A DNA stretch of 64,000 bases, from NCBI GenBank assembly GCA_963813025.1, contig CAWEXO010000009.1, forward strand, positions 32,001 to 96,000, written 5' to 3'. Of the stretch, positions 7,013 to 64,000 are shown one piece after another. The DNA is from an uncultured Verrucomicrobiae bacterium. Lineage in GTDB: Bacteria > Verrucomicrobiota > Verrucomicrobiia > Chthoniobacterales > JAFAMB01. The notes beneath the pieces are model-generated. The model had not been told where the DNA came from. It was given only the letters and a program-made list of their open reading frames with translations, and made no database searches. The translations under genes were made by a program, and so were the position numbers. Positions within the stretch are counted from its first letter, which is position 1; each line of letters begins with the position of its first letter.

Positions 7013-7062
7013 GCACTGGCACTGGCACTGGCACTGGCACTGGCACTGACACTTGCACTAGC
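7013..7062 (+). repeat. Hexamer microsatellite (GCACTG)6 plus variants
   Basis: Six perfect GCACTG units followed by ACACTT GCACTA GC; same family recurs across the window. Confidence 0.9.
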
Positions 7063-14356: not shown

Positions 14357-15139
14357 TTACGGCAGCCCCCACGCTTTTCGACGTTTGGCAAGCTCCGGCT
14401 CGGGCAATTGCACGAGCAACGGTTGAGCTCTCGGATCGAGCCAGCGCAAGAGATGTTCCAGGTCGCCTTCACCCAAGGCGGTGCACCCGGTCGTGCCCCC
14501 ATGTGGGCCGGCCCAGACGTGAAGGAAAATGCAGGAACCTCGTGCGGGAATTTGCTGCCAGTTATGTTCCACCATCAATCCCCAATGATATTGTCCGCCA
14601 ACCCGAGCCATTCCCTCCGAATGAGACCAATCGGGCCGGTCAACGGTAGCTCGATCCACGATCCGGTTGTAGAACCGTGAACCTGGATCATCAACGGCCT
14701 CGGTGGTTGGAGTGACCTGTCGATAAGCTAGCCGGAGAAACCTGACTGCGCTTGGAGCCGCTTTGCCGAAGATTTCCGAAAACCGGAAAACACCGGCTGG
14801 AGACCGGCCATCGCCCTCCGTCTTTTGCGGCTGCCCGGAAACACCCGTTCCGTGAAGGCCGATTCCCCAGCCGAGCCCGTGCCAGCCAATAACAGCCGGC
14901 ATAGCGCCAGAACTCACTTGCCAGGAGCCGGACGATGGCCGCTCAAATAACTGAACGGTGGCATTCAGATCTCGCCAGGAGCGCGTTTTCACGAGGACCA
15001 GTTGTCGAGCTGAGCGCAGTTGGGGGACGATGTTGCTCACGTTCGCATTCGTCGGGGTAGGGACCATTGCTAGTGCTAGTGCTAGTGCCAGTGTCAGTTC
15101 ATTTAGGGAGCGCAGCAGGACTAGTACCGGCACTGTCAT
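14357..15139 (-). CDS. L,D-transpeptidase (YkuD-like) family protein
   Basis: KTEGDGRSPAGVF, GSCIFLHVW and TTGCTA (His/Cys catalytic motif). Start is ATG 15139 or 15067. Confidence 0.85.
   Translation of the reverse strand: MTVPVLVLLRSLNELTLALALALAMVPTPTNANVSNIVPQLRSARQLVLVKTRSWRDLNATVQLFERPSSGSWQVSSGAMPAVIGWHGLGWGIGLHGTGVSGQPQKTEGDGRSPAGVFRFSEIFGKAAPSAVRFLRLAYRQVTPTTEAVDDPGSRFYNRIVDRATVDRPDWSHSEGMARVGGQYHWGLMVEHNWQQIPARGSCIFLHVWAGPHGGTTGCTALGEGDLEHLLRWLDPRAQPLLVQLPEPELAKRRKAWGLP
15068..15098 (-). repeat. Hexamer microsatellite (GCACTA/G family)
   Basis: TGCTAGTGCTAGTGCTAGTGCCAGTGTCAGT on the + strand. Confidence 0.85.
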
Positions 15140-17203: not shown

Positions 17204-17330
17204 GTAGGGCGATCCGCCTTTGCGGATGAGCCTTCGGCCCGACTCGTTTTGAGCCGGACGCTGGAGTTGCCACCTCCAGCGCCCGGCTCAAACAAGTTCT
17301 CGCCAAGGCTCGAATAAATTTTCGCCCTAC
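17204..17330. repeat. REPIN-like element, REP family C (unoccupied IS110-A target)
   Basis: GTAGGGCGA...TCGCCCTAC termini with internal palindrome TTTGAGCCGGACGCTGGAG/CTCCAGCGCCCGGCTCAAA. Homologous to 35078-35090 joined to 37148-37258. Confidence 0.9.
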
Positions 17331-18526: not shown

Positions 18527-18565
18527 GTCAGTGATAGTGCCAGTGTCAGTGATAGTGAGTGCCAG
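18527..18565 (-). repeat. Degenerate hexamer microsatellite (GCACTA/G family)
   Basis: GTCAGTGATAGTGCCAGTGTCAGTGATAGTGAGTGCCAG. Confidence 0.75.
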
Positions 18566-31997: not shown

Positions 31998-32033
31998 GTT
32001 TCGCGTTTCTGGTTTCGCGTTTCAAGTTTCACG
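31990..32033. repeat. Heptamer tract (TTTCACG/TTTCGCG)
   Basis: CGTTTCACGTTTCGCGTTTCTGGTTTCGCGTTTCAAGTTTCACG. Related tracts at about 39983-40013, 43357-43389, 57118-57167 and 57324-57367. Confidence 0.8.
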
Positions 32034-34974: not shown

Positions 34975-35016
34975 TTTGCGGAGGAGAGCATACAGAGTGG
35001 AGCAGGTGAACAGCAA

Positions 35017-35061
35017 GTGTCAGTGCTGCTAGTGCCAGTGTCAGTGCTAGTGCCAGTGTCA
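35017..35061 (-). repeat. Hexamer microsatellite (GCACTA/G family)
   Basis: GTGTCAGTGCTGCTAGTGCCAGTGTCAGTGCTAGTGCCAGTGTCA. Confidence 0.85.
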
Positions 35062-37258: not shown

Positions 37259-37363
37259 CAAAGGAAGTGCGTCCACCCCTGAACCCGCGCGCCTCAAAAA
37301 AAGTAGTCGAAGCTCTAAGTCGCTCGACGCGCCGCCTGCCTCGGCGGCCACTAGCACTAGCAC

Positions 37364-38491
37364 TAGTGCCTAATTGCGTAAGTTAGTTATATGTATGGCG
37401 ACTTTCCCCTGATGTACCTGGGATTTGGTCCATTCGAAGGGAGCCGCATTGTTATTGTAGTTCTTGATGAAGGTGTCGATGGCGTTGCGCAGCTCTGCCA
37501 CGCTGGTGAAGTTTGCCCCCTGGAGGGCTTGGCGGCTCAAGATACTAAACCAGATCTCAATCTGGTTGAGCCAAGAAGCGTGGGTTGGAGTGAAATGAAA
37601 ATGCACATTGGGGTGAGCCTTCAACCAGCGATCTTGCTTTGGCTTATGGGTCGCAAGGTTGTCTAAGACCACATGAATTTCTTTGTCGAGATTTCCGGCA
37701 ACTACCTGGTTCATAAACTCCAGGAATTCCCGTCGGCGCTGGCGCCGGTAATGACCAGCCTGCACTTGGCCGCTGGCAATGTTGAGGGCGGCAAAGAGAG
37801 TGGAGGTGCCATGGCGCTTGTACTCGTGGCTAAAACCCGTCAGCGCCCTGCCATTGGGCAAGCGAATCCAACCTTGGGCTCTTTCCAGGGCTTGAATGGC
37901 TGGTTTTTCATCAATGGCCAAGATGAGCGCATTCTGGGGCGGATTGAGATAAAGACCGACAATGTCAGCGGCCTTGCGCACAAACTCCGGATCGGTGGAA
38001 ATGCACCAGCTGCGGCGCCGTTCCAATTCAATGCCTTGTTGGCGCAAAATGCGCCAGACTTGATCGGAGGAAACATCGGCCAGACTCTGCGCCAGCAGTC
38101 GCCCATTCCAGCGCCCGTAGCCCGCCGGTGGATCTTCATCCAGCAGCGCCAAGACCCGCTTGACCGTCATTTGATCATACTTGGCCGGCTTTCCACTGCG
38201 TGGCGCGTCTTCCAAGCCAGCCAGGCCTTGGCGCACAAAGCGCCGCCGCCATTTACTCACCGTCACCTCGGGAATGCGCAGGCTCTTGGCAATCGCACGT
38301 CCACTCAAGCCCGCTGCCGCCTTCAAGATAATCTGACTCCTGACCTTGAGCCGGTGTTCGACCCGTTGCGCTCGACTCCAACCCTCCAAGAGCTTGCGGT
38401 TTTCCACAGAAAGTTTGATGCGACCCGTTGCCATCCATCCAACAAATCATAATTTTTCATAAATATAAAGAACTAAAGCAACTAAGTACTA
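37364..38491 (-). mobile_element. IS630-family insertion sequence inside a hexamer microsatellite
   Basis: IRs TAGTGCCTAATTGCGTAAGTTAGTTAT / TAGTACTTAGTTGCTTTAGTTCTTTAT with TA duplicated in CTAG. The empty site reads CACTAGCACTAGCAC[TA]GCACTGACACTGAC. Confidence 0.92.
37370..38434 (-). CDS. IS630 transposase
   Basis: HTH region, IDEK, YKRHGT, VLDNLATHK and SWLNQIEIWF. Confidence 0.95.
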   Translation of the reverse strand: MATGRIKLSVENRKLLEGWSRAQRVEHRLKVRSQIILKAAAGLSGRAIAKSLRIPEVTVSKWRRRFVRQGLAGLEDAPRSGKPAKYDQMTVKRVLALLDEDPPAGYGRWNGRLLAQSLADVSSDQVWRILRQQGIELERRRSWCISTDPEFVRKAADIVGLYLNPPQNALILAIDEKPAIQALERAQGWIRLPNGRALTGFSHEYKRHGTSTLFAALNIASGQVQAGHYRRQRRREFLEFMNQVVAGNLDKEIHVVLDNLATHKPKQDRWLKAHPNVHFHFTPTHASWLNQIEIWFSILSRQALQGANFTSVAELRNAIDTFIKNYNNNAAPFEWTKSQVHQGKVAIHITNLRN

Positions 38492-60906: not shown

Positions 60907-60927
60907 CAGTGCCAGTGCCAGTGCCAG
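60907..60927 (-). repeat. Hexamer microsatellite (CAGTGC)3
   Basis: CAGTGCCAGTGCCAGTGCCAG. Confidence 0.7.
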
Positions 60928-61063
60928 GAGTGGGGAGTTCAAGCACCGTCGGTCATTTGGATTGGCCATCGGTCATTGGCAGTGTCATTGGTGAAAGTAG
61001 GTGATAGCTCCTCCATCGGAAATTGCCCTTCGCAAAAATCTGCGAGAGAGTTCACCGGGAGAG

Positions 61064-61736
61064 ATGACCGGCCAAATAGACATCGAATCGAAACTCCGGG
61101 GGAGCAGCACGGCCGGGCCGAGTTCTCTCCGTTAACATCAGCGCTATTCGGACAGTCACCTCACGGGGAAGACCGGTTACCACTGGGATTTACAAGGAAC
61201 CTGTCAATGGACGCGTGCGAGTCGCTGGAGTGAACATCGAGGGCGATGATCAGGCTGATCGCAAAAATCACGGCGGCCCGCACAAAGCGGTCTATGCGTA
61301 CGCCATTGAAGACTACGAATGGTTTTCGAAACAGCAGCATCGAGCCTTTAGGCCGGGCGATTTCGGCGAGAATCTCACGATTAAGGGAGTAGACATTACA
61401 AGGGCGGTGATCGGCGAACGGTGGGTAATTGGTTCGGTCGAATTCGAAATTTCCGAGCCCAGGATTCCTTGCTATAAGCTCGGCATAAAGGTTCAAGATC
61501 CTCGTTTTCCCGCGGCTTTCGCCAAAGCGGAGCGGCCGGGAGCTTACCTGCGGATCATCCGAGAGGGGGCACTTGGAAGTGCCGATTCTGTTCGAATTCT
61601 CTCCCGACCCGACCACGGTGTCACGATTCAGGACGTTGCCGACGCGTACCTCTTCAATCACGCTTTGCTCCGCCGCCTGCTCGATGTGCCGCAGCTGCGC
61701 TCTGTTTGGCATGACCGTGCCAGGGACGCGATGTAA
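61064..61736 (+). CDS. MOSC domain protein (YiiM-like)
   Basis: RVLSVN..TTGIYKEPV, GDDQAD..HGGPHKAVY, FGENLT and PRIPCYKL. Homology extends upstream of GTG 61215; using ATG 61064 needs one frameshift near 61115. Confidence 0.85.
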
Positions 61737-61862
61737 TACGGCGGCAGTCAGCAGAGTACGGACCAGGCCTTCCGCCTCCGTCCCCATTTCGGGGGACAAC
61801 GGTACGACAAGTTCCGCGCTGCCCGACTCGGCACCTCACGAACGCCACTAGCACTAGCACTC

Positions 61863-63254
61863 CTAAGAAACTAAATCCGTGGCTGGGTCTAGAGGCGTGA
61901 GTTGGAGTCCGAATTCTTTGGCTCGTCGGCTGAGATTGTGAAGTAGGCGGTCTTTGTATTTTTTCTCGTAGTAGAGTTGCCCTTGCTCGACATAGGCAGC
62001 TCCGAACTTGAGCATGCGATAGAACAAGCGTGCCAGTTTATGAGCTCCGGCGTTGATGGCGGTGGGTGCCCCCAATCGGGCTTTGATGCGGCGGATAAAA
62101 GCGCCGATGGCCGTCTTACTTTGCATGGCTCCTTGGGCCGCCAGCCGGAACATGGCCGCCGCGCGATTCTTGGTTTTTCTGGGGCTGGAACTGAGCAGTT
62201 TGCCGCCGCTGATGCGATTGTCCGGACAGAGTTTAAGCCAGGAGCAAAAGTGTTTTTCGCTTTTCCAACAGGTCATGTCTAAACCCGTTTCCGAAATGAT
62301 GACTTCCACCGCCAAGGTGCTCAAGCCAGGCAACTGACTCAGATCGACACCACAAACGCTGGCCAGATGCGCTCGGCGCTGCAGGGCTAGGCGAACTTGG
62401 GCCGACCGTGCTTGGGCCGCCCCGCTTTGCTCGAGGGCTTGCTCCAAATCTAGTTTAGTGTCGAATTGCTCAAGTTGTTGCTCAATCTTGCTTTCGCAGG
62501 CGGTGATCTTGAGCTGGTAGGTGTCATAGAGTTCCAGGGCCGTTTGCAAGGCGAAGAGATGCTCGGCTCGGTAATCTCCCTGTAAGGCTTTGACGATCTG
62601 ATCAGTGGATGCTTTCACTTGGGGGTGTTTCATCTGGGCAAGCTTGAGCGGATTGCGTTCTCCGGCCAAAATCGCCCGAATCATCGCCATGCCACTATAA
62701 CCGGTGATGTCGCTCAACACGCGGTGCACTTGGATATTCATTTCGGTTAAGGCCTTCTGCATGCGTAACACATGGCTGCTGCAGTCCTTAACCAAGGTGT
62801 CGCGCAGGCGCAGGAAGCTGCGCAAGACGCAGACCTCGTCCTTGGGTCGGAACGAGCCGTTTAAAAGACCAAAGGTGTGGAGTTGTTGAAGCCATTGGCA
62901 GTCCGAGACGTCGCTTTTGCGTCCAGGCAGATTCTTGACATGAGCTGCGTTGACCAATTTTACCTCCAACCCTCTCTGCTCCAGAATCTGGAACACCGGT
63001 ATCCAATAAACCCCCGTTGATTCCATCACTACGGTCTCAATGTGGTGTTCGCTCAGCCAGTCAGCCATCCGCTGCAGATCGCTCGTAAAAGGGCCAAACT
63101 TGCGCACCGTTTCTGAGCCGCGGTCTTCGGGAATGGCCACCAGGTGAAAATTCGCCCCGATATCGATTCCTGCGGCCTTGAGATTGATCCGTTCCAGAAC
63201 ACTCCGGTGAGTTTTTGATTTGTTCTTTCGCTTGGTCGTGGTTTTCTTTGCCAT
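61863..63254 (-). CDS. IS110 family DEDD recombinase
   Basis: AAGIDIG, VVMESTGVYW and KSDVSD give the DEDD residues; the C-terminal domain has NRISGG. Confidence 0.96.
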   Translation of the reverse strand: MAKKTTTKRKNKSKTHRSVLERINLKAAGIDIGANFHLVAIPEDRGSETVRKFGPFTSDLQRMADWLSEHHIETVVMESTGVYWIPVFQILEQRGLEVKLVNAAHVKNLPGRKSDVSDCQWLQQLHTFGLLNGSFRPKDEVCVLRSFLRLRDTLVKDCSSHVLRMQKALTEMNIQVHRVLSDITGYSGMAMIRAILAGERNPLKLAQMKHPQVKASTDQIVKALQGDYRAEHLFALQTALELYDTYQLKITACESKIEQQLEQFDTKLDLEQALEQSGAAQARSAQVRLALQRRAHLASVCGVDLSQLPGLSTLAVEVIISETGLDMTCWKSEKHFCSWLKLCPDNRISGGKLLSSSPRKTKNRAAAMFRLAAQGAMQSKTAIGAFIRRIKARLGAPTAINAGAHKLARLFYRMLKFGAAYVEQGQLYYEKKYKDRLLHNLSRRAKEFGLQLTPLDPATDLVS

Positions 63255-63299
63255 ACCTCTCTTGGGTTAGATGTTGTTCTTGCTTTCACACTGCAGCGC

Positions 63300-63470
63300 A
63301 TCGGCCCGAGTTGGTAGATAGAGAGAAATCTCCTAAACAGGATAGCTCCAGATCGGCAAACAACCCGATCTGGAGCTTCGCTAATGCAACAACCAAAACG
63401 CTCGGAACCAAACTAGCTATCGGGCATAAAGCTCCAATGCCACACCGGTCTTAACTGCCGACCCACTGCT
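63300..63470 (-). ncRNA. Predicted bridge RNA of IS110 element B
   Basis: Target loop UGUGGCAUU (63444-63436) / AUAGCUAG (63420-63413). Donor loop UGUUGCAUU (63391-63383) / UUUAGGAG (63337-63330) around a 13-bp hairpin at 63344-63377. Ends are approximate. Confidence 0.75.
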
Positions 63471-63550
63471 GCCTACTTTCTACGTCGAGATGCCCAAGGC
63501 AATCAATCCAGTGTTTCTTGCCGCAAAAAGAACGCGCAGAGTTCTGGGGA

Positions 63551-63600
63551 ACTAGCTAGCACTGGCACTGACACTGGGCACTGGCACTGGGCACTGGCAC
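63551..63600 (+). repeat. Hexamer microsatellite, right half of the tract split by IS110-B
   Basis: ACTAGCTAGCACTGGCACTGACACTGGGCACTGGCACTGGGCACTGGCAC; the left half CACTAGCACTAGCACT is at 61846-61861. Confidence 0.85.
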
Positions 63601-63636
63601 CCTTTGCTCCTCGCCACCTTGAGCTATTTTTGCCAC

Positions 63637-64000
63637 GTGCCGTCGTCCAAACGACTCTTCGTCGGGATCGAAATTCCTTCGAATTGCCAAGCGGGTCTGC
63701 GGACGATCGATCCGCGGATAGCGGGCCTTCGCTGGCTTTCCGTCGGGCAGTTTCATTTGACCCTCAGTTTCCTCGGACAGATTGAAACGCGGGCTGAAGA
63801 GCGACTCCAGGCGGTTCTGAGCGAAGTGCGCGTGCCGCCGTTTTTTCTACCATTGCGGGGCGTCGGCACGTTCAGCTCGCGCGGTCGCATATCAGTTGTC
63901 TGGGTCGGCGTGGGGAAAGGGCACCCTCACCTTTTTGCGCTGCATCAGCGGATTCAAGATGCCATTCTCTCCGCGGGTATTGAACCTGATCTCAAACCGT
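63637..64000 (+). CDS. thpR: RNA 2',3'-cyclic phosphodiesterase (3'-truncated by window edge; not in ORF track)
   Basis: GTG start, RLFVGI, LRW, first 2H motif FHLTLSFLG and VVWVG. Confidence 0.85.
   Translation, partial: MPSSKRLFVGIEIPSNCQAGLRTIDPRIAGLRWLSVGQFHLTLSFLGQIETRAEERLQAVLSEVRVPPFFLPLRGVGTFSSRGRISVVWVGVGKGHPHLFALHQRIQDAILSAGIEPDLKP

Follow-up and report, generated by a model that had tools for sequence, protein, structure and literature searches.

What directs an insertion sequence (IS) to its site when that site lies within a short tandem repeat? The question is raised by a stretch of 64,000 nt from the genome of an uncultured Verrucomicrobiae bacterium (assembly GCA_963813025.1, contig CAWEXO010000009.1, forward strand, positions 32,001–96,000), which as a whole we call the window. 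Near its end there is an element of the IS110 family inserted in a tract of hexamers: on its left flank (61846–61859) we find CACTAG repeats (×2.7, the tract spanning 61846–61861), on its right flank (63560–63600) irregular GCACTG repeats (×6.7, spanning 63559–63600). The original prediction was that the element is intact, that its non-coding end gives a guide RNA, and that this RNA is tuned to the microsatellite, which occurs at least seven times in the window. The element, its place inside the hexamer tracts and the number of tracts are all as predicted, but the target is a different one: 11 of the 13 copies in the genome lie away from such tracts, and the feature common to the copies is a CTAG-based octamer on one flank. 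We consider it likely that this is a canonical RNA-guided IS of the IS110 family, with a bridge RNA of about 180 nt which seeks a CTAG-based palindrome on one side.

We will start with the protein. The transposase gene (61863–63254, minus strand) is an uninterrupted open reading frame (ORF) of 463 amino acids, with a DEDD RuvC-like domain and a C-terminal transposase (Tnp) domain. It matches Pfam DEDD_Tnp_IS110 (PF01548) with E 6.3e-20 (72 bits, cut-off 29) and Transposase_20 (PF02371) with E 6.6e-07 (30.1 bits, cut-off 21.3). The NCBIfam equivalog NF033542, named 'IS110 family RNA-guided transposase', covers residues 28–416 with 247 bits (cut-off 140). Residues D31, E78, D115 and D118 are invariant in eight of eight aligned sequences, the window protein and seven relatives with 46–79% identity. 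Position 349 is Ser in six of them and Thr in two; in the alignment with IS621 the counterpart of S349 is the Ser of the ESG motif. Similarity to the solved IS621 transposase is weak (E 4.1e-05). The nucleophile of IS621 is named as S241 in the part of PMC11208158 used here. The two relatives with Thr (L038 and L045) belong to families with at least five near-identical copies; Thr would serve at this position if those elements are active. Judged from its sequence, the protein is an IS110-family RNA-guided transposase: the DEDD residues and the C-terminal Tnp domain with its Ser are present, and the whole-protein model scores above its cut-off.

A BLAST search of the region against the genome (16 contigs, 4.42 Mb, 80% complete) gives 13 copies of the element, that of the window included. 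Nine are full-length with at least 99.8% identity, one has 98.8%, one 87.9%, and two are interrupted; from these figures the element is apparently active. The block common to the copies corresponds to 61860–63559. Inside it the element proper (61862–63551, minus strand) lies between two copies of a 2-nt core and has the canonical ends CCTAAG...GGGGAA on the plus strand. The left core (61860–61861) is CT on the plus strand, AG in the transposase sense; CT is found directly 5' of CCTAAG in all 11 flanks listed. The far, transposase-distal end (61862–61871, minus strand) reads GTTTCTTAGG in the transposase sense and contains GTTTCTT, one arm of a subterminal inverted repeat of 7 nt. The other arm, AAGAAAC (63519–63513), falls within a terminal stretch of about 42 nt at the RNA-proximal end (63510–63551, minus strand), which is kept in miniature elements of this genome and of a relative. 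We have set the RNA-proximal end at 63551, so that the element begins with TTCCCC, by a family-wide junction rule described below and by tandem junctions: there are three of the type GG(G/C)GAA-CT-CCTAAG in this genome and more of them in a relative. The ends implied by the circle junction proposed at the outset, TGGGGAA[CT]CCTAAG, agree with both. The non-coding arm upstream of the ORF has about 300 nt, and the far end follows the stop codon after a single nucleotide.

The flanks of the copies are conserved on one side only. On the left side (plus strand) they have nothing in common. On the right side GGGGAA is followed by the palindromic octamer CTAGCTAG in six of the 13 copies, and five more have a variant of it with one position changed. 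The octamers other than CTAGCTAG are CTAGTTAG in two copies, CTAGCTAA, CTAGCTAC, CTTGCTAG and CTAAGCCT in one copy each, and a mutated (GGGGAC)TGAGTTAG in another one. These bases belong to the flank and not to the element, since they vary far more than the element, which is 99.8% identical. In the window the octamer (63552–63559) directly adjoins the RNA-proximal end and contains both the second core copy (63552–63553) and the half-site for guide 1, although the tetramer 63552–63555 next to the element may have arrived with it, as we will discuss. The same one-sided conservation is found in the other multi-copy relatives whose flanks were read. The copies outside the window lie in unique DNA, next to miniature relatives, or in abundant repeats that resemble repetitive extragenic palindromes (REP-like repeats).

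The microsatellite itself is frequent. Tracts of the GCACTR type are found at seven loci of the window, the other six being at 7013–7059, 15064–15098, 18529–18558, 35016–35061, 37349–37366 and 60907–60927; they have both orientations and lie between genes. The whole genome has 33 strict tracts (at least three perfect units) with a total of 864 nt. The window copy is inside a tract and one of the interrupted copies is 15 nt away from another; the other 11 copies are at a distance of at least 2 kb or in a contig free of tracts.

By its sequence and conservation, the long non-coding end contains a structured RNA with two internal loops, as had been predicted; its transcription is presumed. This putative bridge RNA of about 180 nt (63293–63472, minus strand) lies upstream of the transposase gene and was delimited by conservation and by consensus folds. 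In the copy with 88% identity the counterpart of 63472–63293 is nearly unchanged, more conserved than the ORF, which has diverged. For the folds we collected relatives from public genomes with 44–88% protein identity: they come from Verrucomicrobiae, many cyanobacteria, Deltaproteobacteria and other groups. One consensus fold was obtained from 36 distinct aligned RNAs and a separate one from the close set. An outer stem P1 surrounds two internal loops, each closed by a stem and carrying an inner hairpin (P2/P3 and P4/P5). P2 (ACCG/UGGU) closes loop 1 and is paired in 36 of 36 RNAs; the inner hairpin P3 has the form UGGNGC...GCCYG. Loop 2 is closed by P4, a helix of 5–10 nt whose sequence differs between families (shuffled partners give a mode of 5), and its inner hairpin P5 has the form UGGUGAAG...CUAUCCYG. 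Changes on both sides preserve pairs among the 36 RNAs, in P3 (8 and 4 sequences) and in P5 (10, 1, 21 and 22 sequences); P4 has compensatory changes as well. Both loops are alike in build: a 5' strand UGG(U/A)G..., the inner hairpin, a 3' strand ...CCYG and then a guide, which is the stretch of 8 nt immediately 3' of CCYG. A scan of 61000–64000 against Rfam did not find any family; the lone match, below threshold, was CssrB with 19.9 bits against a gathering score of 76.

Guide 1 is AUAGCUAG (63413–63420, minus strand), on the 3' side of loop 1, with positions 2–8 effective. It is followed by two U (63411–63412, minus strand), which are handshake-like and correspond to the TT with which the element (TTCCCC) begins. 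Together they correspond to CTAGCTAG|TT, the flank and junction at the RNA-proximal end. Guide 2 is UUUAGGAG (63330–63337, minus strand), located in loop 2, again on the 3' side; its sequence is like that of the far end together with the core and corresponds to the far end CTTAGGAG of the element. The two guides (63420–63413 and 63337–63330) are present and complementary as had been claimed, and they covary throughout the family.

The RNA was located by its conserved scaffold alone, with a stricter pattern that is satisfied in 50 of 79 loci, and the counts rest on those. Loci in which the sequence ended within 700 nt downstream or 165 nt upstream of the RNA were dropped, and 39 remained testable for guide 2 and 42 for guide 1; they are partly non-independent, several being copies of one element within one genome. 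Positions 2–8 of guide 1 and the next two nucleotides were compared with a site located 105–165 nt upstream. There was at most one mismatch in 34 of the 42 loci, as against 6 of 1458 controls. More precisely, 17 loci have no mismatch, 17 have one, five have two and three have four, whereas none of the 1458 non-cognate comparisons is perfect and the six mentioned have one mismatch each. The site matched is the junction of flank and element, with the last two bases of the stretch being the core (AG in the transposase sense), and, as a rule in the whole family, the dinucleotide that follows guide 1 resembles the one with which the element starts. For guide 2, an exact copy of positions 2–8 is found at the far end, 1200–2000 nt downstream, in 36 of 39 loci; among non-cognate pairs this holds for 35 of 1212. 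Nine different 7-mers of guide 2 covary in this way (TTAGGAG, TTAGAAG, TTAAGAG, TTGAAAG, CTAGGAG and others), and an independent selection of loci gave 27 matches out of 29. Both 3'-side guides and the handshake-like bases covary with their DNA partners across several phyla. The claim of a complete recombinase with its guide RNA is well backed by these data. The covariation of loops and targets, which had been proposed as a check, is found for the 3' sides of the loops and does not extend to the 5' sides.

A natural swap is found in one relative genome, where there are elements with the guides AUUAGGAG and UUUAAGAG and the far end CTTAAGAG. They stand directly behind ...CTTAGGAG, which is the far end of sister elements or a lone copy of this motif. 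In that genome full and miniature elements are stacked head to tail in arrays. The target guide AUUAGGAG matches the far end of sister elements in L126 (G001:C42:54500-63500), L112, L113, L115, L116 and L118. Guides aimed at motifs like the right end (RE), namely CTTAGGAG, CTTAGAAG, CTTAAGAG and CTTAAAAG, are also present in L052, L055, L060, L063, L068, L069 and L098. Insertion at the 2-nt AG core is directly demonstrated in Leptolyngbya PCC 6406 by comparison of paralogous empty and occupied sites. In a further relative, whose guide is identical to that of the window element, the paralogous site already bears CTAGCTAA.

These elements would operate as follows. The transposase gene and the upstream bridge RNA would both be transcribed from the minus strand of the window. 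Guide 1 AUAGCUAG would pair with the target, over the core dinucleotide and about 5 nt of the flank adjoining the RNA-proximal end, and the two U would form the handshake by pairing with the final two bases of the incoming end of the element. Guide 2 UUUAGGAG would pair with the donor, over the core and the far end. Recombination across the 2-nt core (CT on the plus strand) would then join the circle junction ...GGGGAA-CT-CCTAAG... to the target ...CT-AGCTA.... That the RNA is transcribed, that a circle is the intermediate and that the strands are exchanged in this order is our inference. Only this one target half-site is visibly constrained in nature; the other flank would be free. Any octamer based on CTAG, whether already present or newly arisen, could then serve as a landing site, as with the copies in REP-like repeats, those at the ends of related elements and the single one in a GCACTA tract, a sequence that includes CTAG.

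How frequent are such targets? CTAG is the rarest tetranucleotide of this genome: it occurs 4034 times in 4.42 Mb, while about 16,800 would be expected by our own estimate from base composition, so that it is under-represented about four-fold. In the same genome GATC occurs 33,940 times. The sequence TAGCTAG is found on either strand at about 100 sites (52 + 60 − 12, counted on the plus strand), some 10 of them at element ends. The full octamer CTAGCTAG has 12 occurrences, seven of them at element ends.

Several observations weigh against the reading of a simple canonical element. The full palindrome CTAGCTAG is present in seven of the 10 occupied TAGCTAG sites and only in five of the approximately 90 free ones; a simple match of 7 nt with the guide leaves this unexplained. 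Then there is a discrepancy in length. Insertion at the 2-nt core is seen in relatives, but the occupied sites of this genome are 4 nt longer than their paralogs predict: the paralogous empty repeats are 4 nt shorter than in the canonical model. A spacer of 8 nt is found in none of 20 paralogs for the copy at C9:178780 (contig and position), none of 75 for C11:491223 and none of seven for C11:436295. These 102 paralogs span both flanks of the three copies and have spacers of 3–5 nt (CTAG, GTTAG, CTTG, CTCG and others), with the exception of one unrelated 10-mer. One paralog of a fourth copy, C2:75785, ends with CTAA. If 4 more nt were removed from the window copy, a perfect hexamer tract would be restored. 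The target reconstructed in the original prediction, ACTAGCA[CT]AGCTAG, may be 4 nt too long, the paralogs having a spacer of 3–5 nt where 8 nt are needed. The polarity also appears to be mirrored with respect to IS621. According to the definitions in the portion of PMC11208160 used here, IS621 has 3'-side guides for the flank adjoining the far end and for the start of the RNA-proximal end. In our element the guide with the handshake reads the RNA-proximal flank and the other one the far end itself; this comparison is derived from the text of the papers and not from the sequence of IS621.

The last point against it concerns the 5' sides of the two loops, for which no partner was found, so that half of the published scheme with four guides is without support here. 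The 5' side of loop 1, UGUGGCAU (63437–63444, minus strand), had been proposed as a second guide; it is variable among close relatives, and the search for a partner found none. Its UGGCAUU pairs over 7 nt, with two G-U pairs, with the left flank and core of the window copy, and it fits none of the 10 other left flanks read. In the whole family the mean run of complementarity between this side and its own flank is 4.05 (n = 19), against 3.62 with foreign flanks (n = 312), and the pairing claimed for the window copy has no family-wide excess. Runs of 7 nt are found in three of the 19 members, in registers that differ, and runs of at least 7 nt in four of 312 controls. In most members there is an A at column 76 of the RNA alignment, a position that would have to pair with the core. 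The 5' side of loop 2, UGUUGCAU (63384–63391, minus strand), proposed as fourth guide, was also found to have no complementarity with the near end, either in this genome or in the family. The pairing which had been suggested, UGUUGCAUU with the GGGGAA end, finds no support in these searches. Over the whole family, neither 5' side gave a signal when compared with the other flank and with the near end. Looking for any guide to the GGGGAA end, in its canonical form or in the form 4 nt longer, we found only trivial self-matches and short runs. One candidate match for the near end, AUUAGC/ACTAGC, was rejected, as the motif AUU-GGUGA/AGCGA is conserved in the family whatever the end sequence.

The additional four nucleotides may be explained in two ways. 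The first explanation keeps the canonical mechanism at every insertion: the sites would have borne CTAGCTAG beforehand, for example by a change in copy number of a CTAG/CTAA unit, and the paralogs merely do not show the variant that was hit. No new mechanism is required. A precedent is found at C13:444795, a free CTAGCTAG in a family of repeats whose other members have CTAG, and in relatives the runs TAGCTAGCTAG, CTAACTAACTAG and CTAGCTAGCTTAGC occur beside such repeats. However, the same rare gain of 4 nt would be needed at five or six independent sites, and the rarity of use of TAGCTAG without a preceding C is left unaccounted for. We take this explanation as possible, though somewhat unlikely.

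In the second explanation the mobile unit usually carries four extra bases, so that it ends with ...GGGGAACTAG, and the true target need only be CT-AG, that is CTAG. The octamer CTAGCTAG at the junction would then be half target and half element, and such a donor could arise by a slip of cleavage at GGGGAA-CT-AG-CT-AG to the second CT. A slip of register is conceivable because guide 1 holds UAG twice, four bases apart. The lengths speak for this explanation: the 8-nt spacer is never seen in the 102 paralogs of the three copies, the paralog of the fourth copy ends with CTAA, and excision of the unit 4 nt longer gives back a perfect tract at the window copy. The counts of the octamer also agree with it, as the five free CTAGCTAG are close to our estimate of the chance expectation (about 4) while seven of 12 are at element ends, and the C before TAGCTAG has the bias towards occupied sites already given. 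Nevertheless, a junction of far end, CTAG and TTCCCC is found neither in the genome nor in any of the loci compared, and every tandem junction is without extra CTAG. The UU after guide 1 fits the TT of TTCCCC and not CT, by a rule that holds in the whole family. The copies at C13:324363 and C14:331238 have a third paralog already bearing CTAGTTAG; the copy C14:37221 ends with GGGGAA-CT-AAGCCT and the copy in C3 has CTTGCTAG. Insertion in relatives is canonical. Altogether we consider this second explanation unlikely.

A combination of both registers can also be imagined. Since guide 1 contains UAG-C-UAG, excision at a CTAGCTAG junction might occur one register out, carrying away half of the palindromic target; landing at a bare CTAG would rebuild the 8-nt site, and an exit in the normal register would leave a footprint of one more CTAG. 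This is a quite improbable proposal. If true, an RNA-guided recombinase would have here a 'portable half-site' that propagates itself, and CTAG duplications in repeats would arise from it. We also note a repeat of at least 150 nt, ending with ...CCCTTGG-CTAGTTAG, in three places: C13:324213-324362, C14:332938-333087 and C9:193446-193596. The IS is inserted in two of these, at an identical base, while one place is empty; it could be a larger mobile unit which carries the IS along, or there could have been two hits at the same cognate site.

It is very improbable that the RNA is programmed for the microsatellite, with UGGCAUU reading the left half of the target, AUAGCUAG the right half and GCACT(A/G) tracts as preferred landing sites: in its favour there are the 7-nt pairing in the window copy, the interrupted copy at 15 nt from a tract, a frequency of two in 13 copies near tracts that exceeds random placement given the tiny share of the genome which they occupy, and the three family members with 7-nt runs, but those runs are in different registers, 11 copies are unrelated to tracts, no other left flank fits UGGCAUU, column 76 is mostly A, 16 sites with TAGCACTAGC, the motif that this reading predicts, and 27 tracts containing CTAG are unoccupied, and the CTAG within tracts alone accounts for an occasional hit. 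The original prediction had itself named insertions at sites unrelated to GCACTAGC as its refutation, and the other copies have such insertions; by this measure the reading is largely refuted.

The canonical RNA-guided element which we favour may be compared with known systems, taking into account that the comparisons rely on portions of the papers cited. The IS110 family, the bridge RNA and its programmability are not new: they have been described since 2024, and NCBI gives the protein family the name 'RNA-guided transposase'. The element is similar to IS621, a member of the IS110 group (Durrant et al. 2024, PMC11208160; Hiraizumi et al. 2024, PMC11208158), in its DEDD and Ser/Thr transposase, in a long upstream non-coding arm for a predicted RNA of about 180 nt whose structure has two internal loops, in guides that include the 2-nt core, in the two bases after the 3'-side guide which read the other DNA partner, in the predicted RE–LE (right end–left end) junction of circle type, and in a preference for intergenic repeats. 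The handshake guides of IS621 are described in PMC11208158; in the model of both papers the guides contain the core and the handshake bases follow, and the architecture found here agrees with it. The differences are a protein of 463 amino acids instead of 328 in the solved chain (with weak similarity, E 4e-05), the support limited to the 3'-side guides (7 + 2 nt) with no partners found for the 5' sides, and the conservation of a single target half-site in natural copies. In IS621 a match with the core and one loop arm is reported to suffice for recombination (Xie et al., bioRxiv 10.64898/2026.08.31.748434). Our natural copies, which share one flank, and the tandem arrays with miniatures resemble such re-use of a one-arm site; however, the IS621 work as cited concerns experiments in vitro and re-analysed editing data with off-target events, while in our case all copies follow the one-sided pattern as a rule.

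The IS1111 group with its seekRNA (Siddiquee et al. 2024, in the part of PMC11187229 used here) also has a subterminal inverted repeat, as found here with GTTTCTT at the far end and, some 35 nt inward from the near end, AAGAAAC. Several relatives of our element target the ends of other mobile elements, as IS1111 members do; the reference list of PMC11208160 includes work on members with transposon ends as targets. Our element has its RNA upstream of the transposase, whereas in IS1111 elements, according to the same paper in the part used, it is downstream; the window element has neither a downstream guide RNA nor a long right end. Finally, ISPpu10 and ISPpu9 of Pseudomonas putida, as presented in the parts used of bioRxiv 10.64898/2026.03.19.712850 and PMC12288879, are IS110-family elements that insert in intergenic repeated palindromes. 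They differ in using one conserved family of repeats, with a stem-loop as extra determinant, whereas here there are several unrelated repeats and unique DNA with a common motif based on CTAG.

The 13 copies, together with some 40 related loci in which over 20 different guide pairs are represented, form a clean natural data set. In this subfamily the 3'-side guides and the handshake bases account for the choice of target and donor while the other flank is free, which bears on the debate about half-matches and off-target events. In several relatives the target guides point at the ends of sister elements, which leads to tandem arrays. The gain of 4 nt, CTAG, at the insertion sites is a concrete and testable oddity.

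Circle joints and empty-site joints were not found in three sequencing runs of one soil study, where the region is present only as low-depth contigs; no RNA data set is listed as containing it. We looked for orthologous empty sites in 41 related genomes, and the left flank was matched only distantly, at the level of genes, with 70–71% identity. In the only related genome that belongs to this genus, regions in synteny with two of the copies either have no intergenic stretch or are too diverged to reveal an empty site. A scan for promoters and terminators gave nothing above chance: the 'terminator' reported is the 13-bp inner hairpin of loop 2.

Outside the window there are miniature derivatives of about 120 bp, non-coding and coming from a related element, at C14:36985-37220, C14:104508-104751 and C13:343107-343228. 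They retain about 45 nt of the RNA-proximal end together with the far end and form tandem arrays with the junction GG(G/C)GAA-CT-CCTAAG; the full copy C14:37221 stands at the end of one such array. The two interrupted copies are broken up at C14:65939-67354 and C3:33057-34467 and at C3:34625-36496. One of the interrupting elements has 1.41 kb and an ORF of 413 amino acids; it has several copies in the genome and gives overlaps of 9 nt at the break. The other one has 1.87 kb, an ORF of 471 amino acids and six near-identical copies, with an overlap of 6 nt. The genome also has several abundant families of REP-like repeats between genes, for example ...GGTAGGGCGAAAATTYATTCGAGC...GCGAGAACTTGTTTGAGCC...: one is found at C11:491073-491222, with at least 75 paralogs, and another instance in the window at 17285–17326. 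Several copies of the IS are located at the centre of such repeats.

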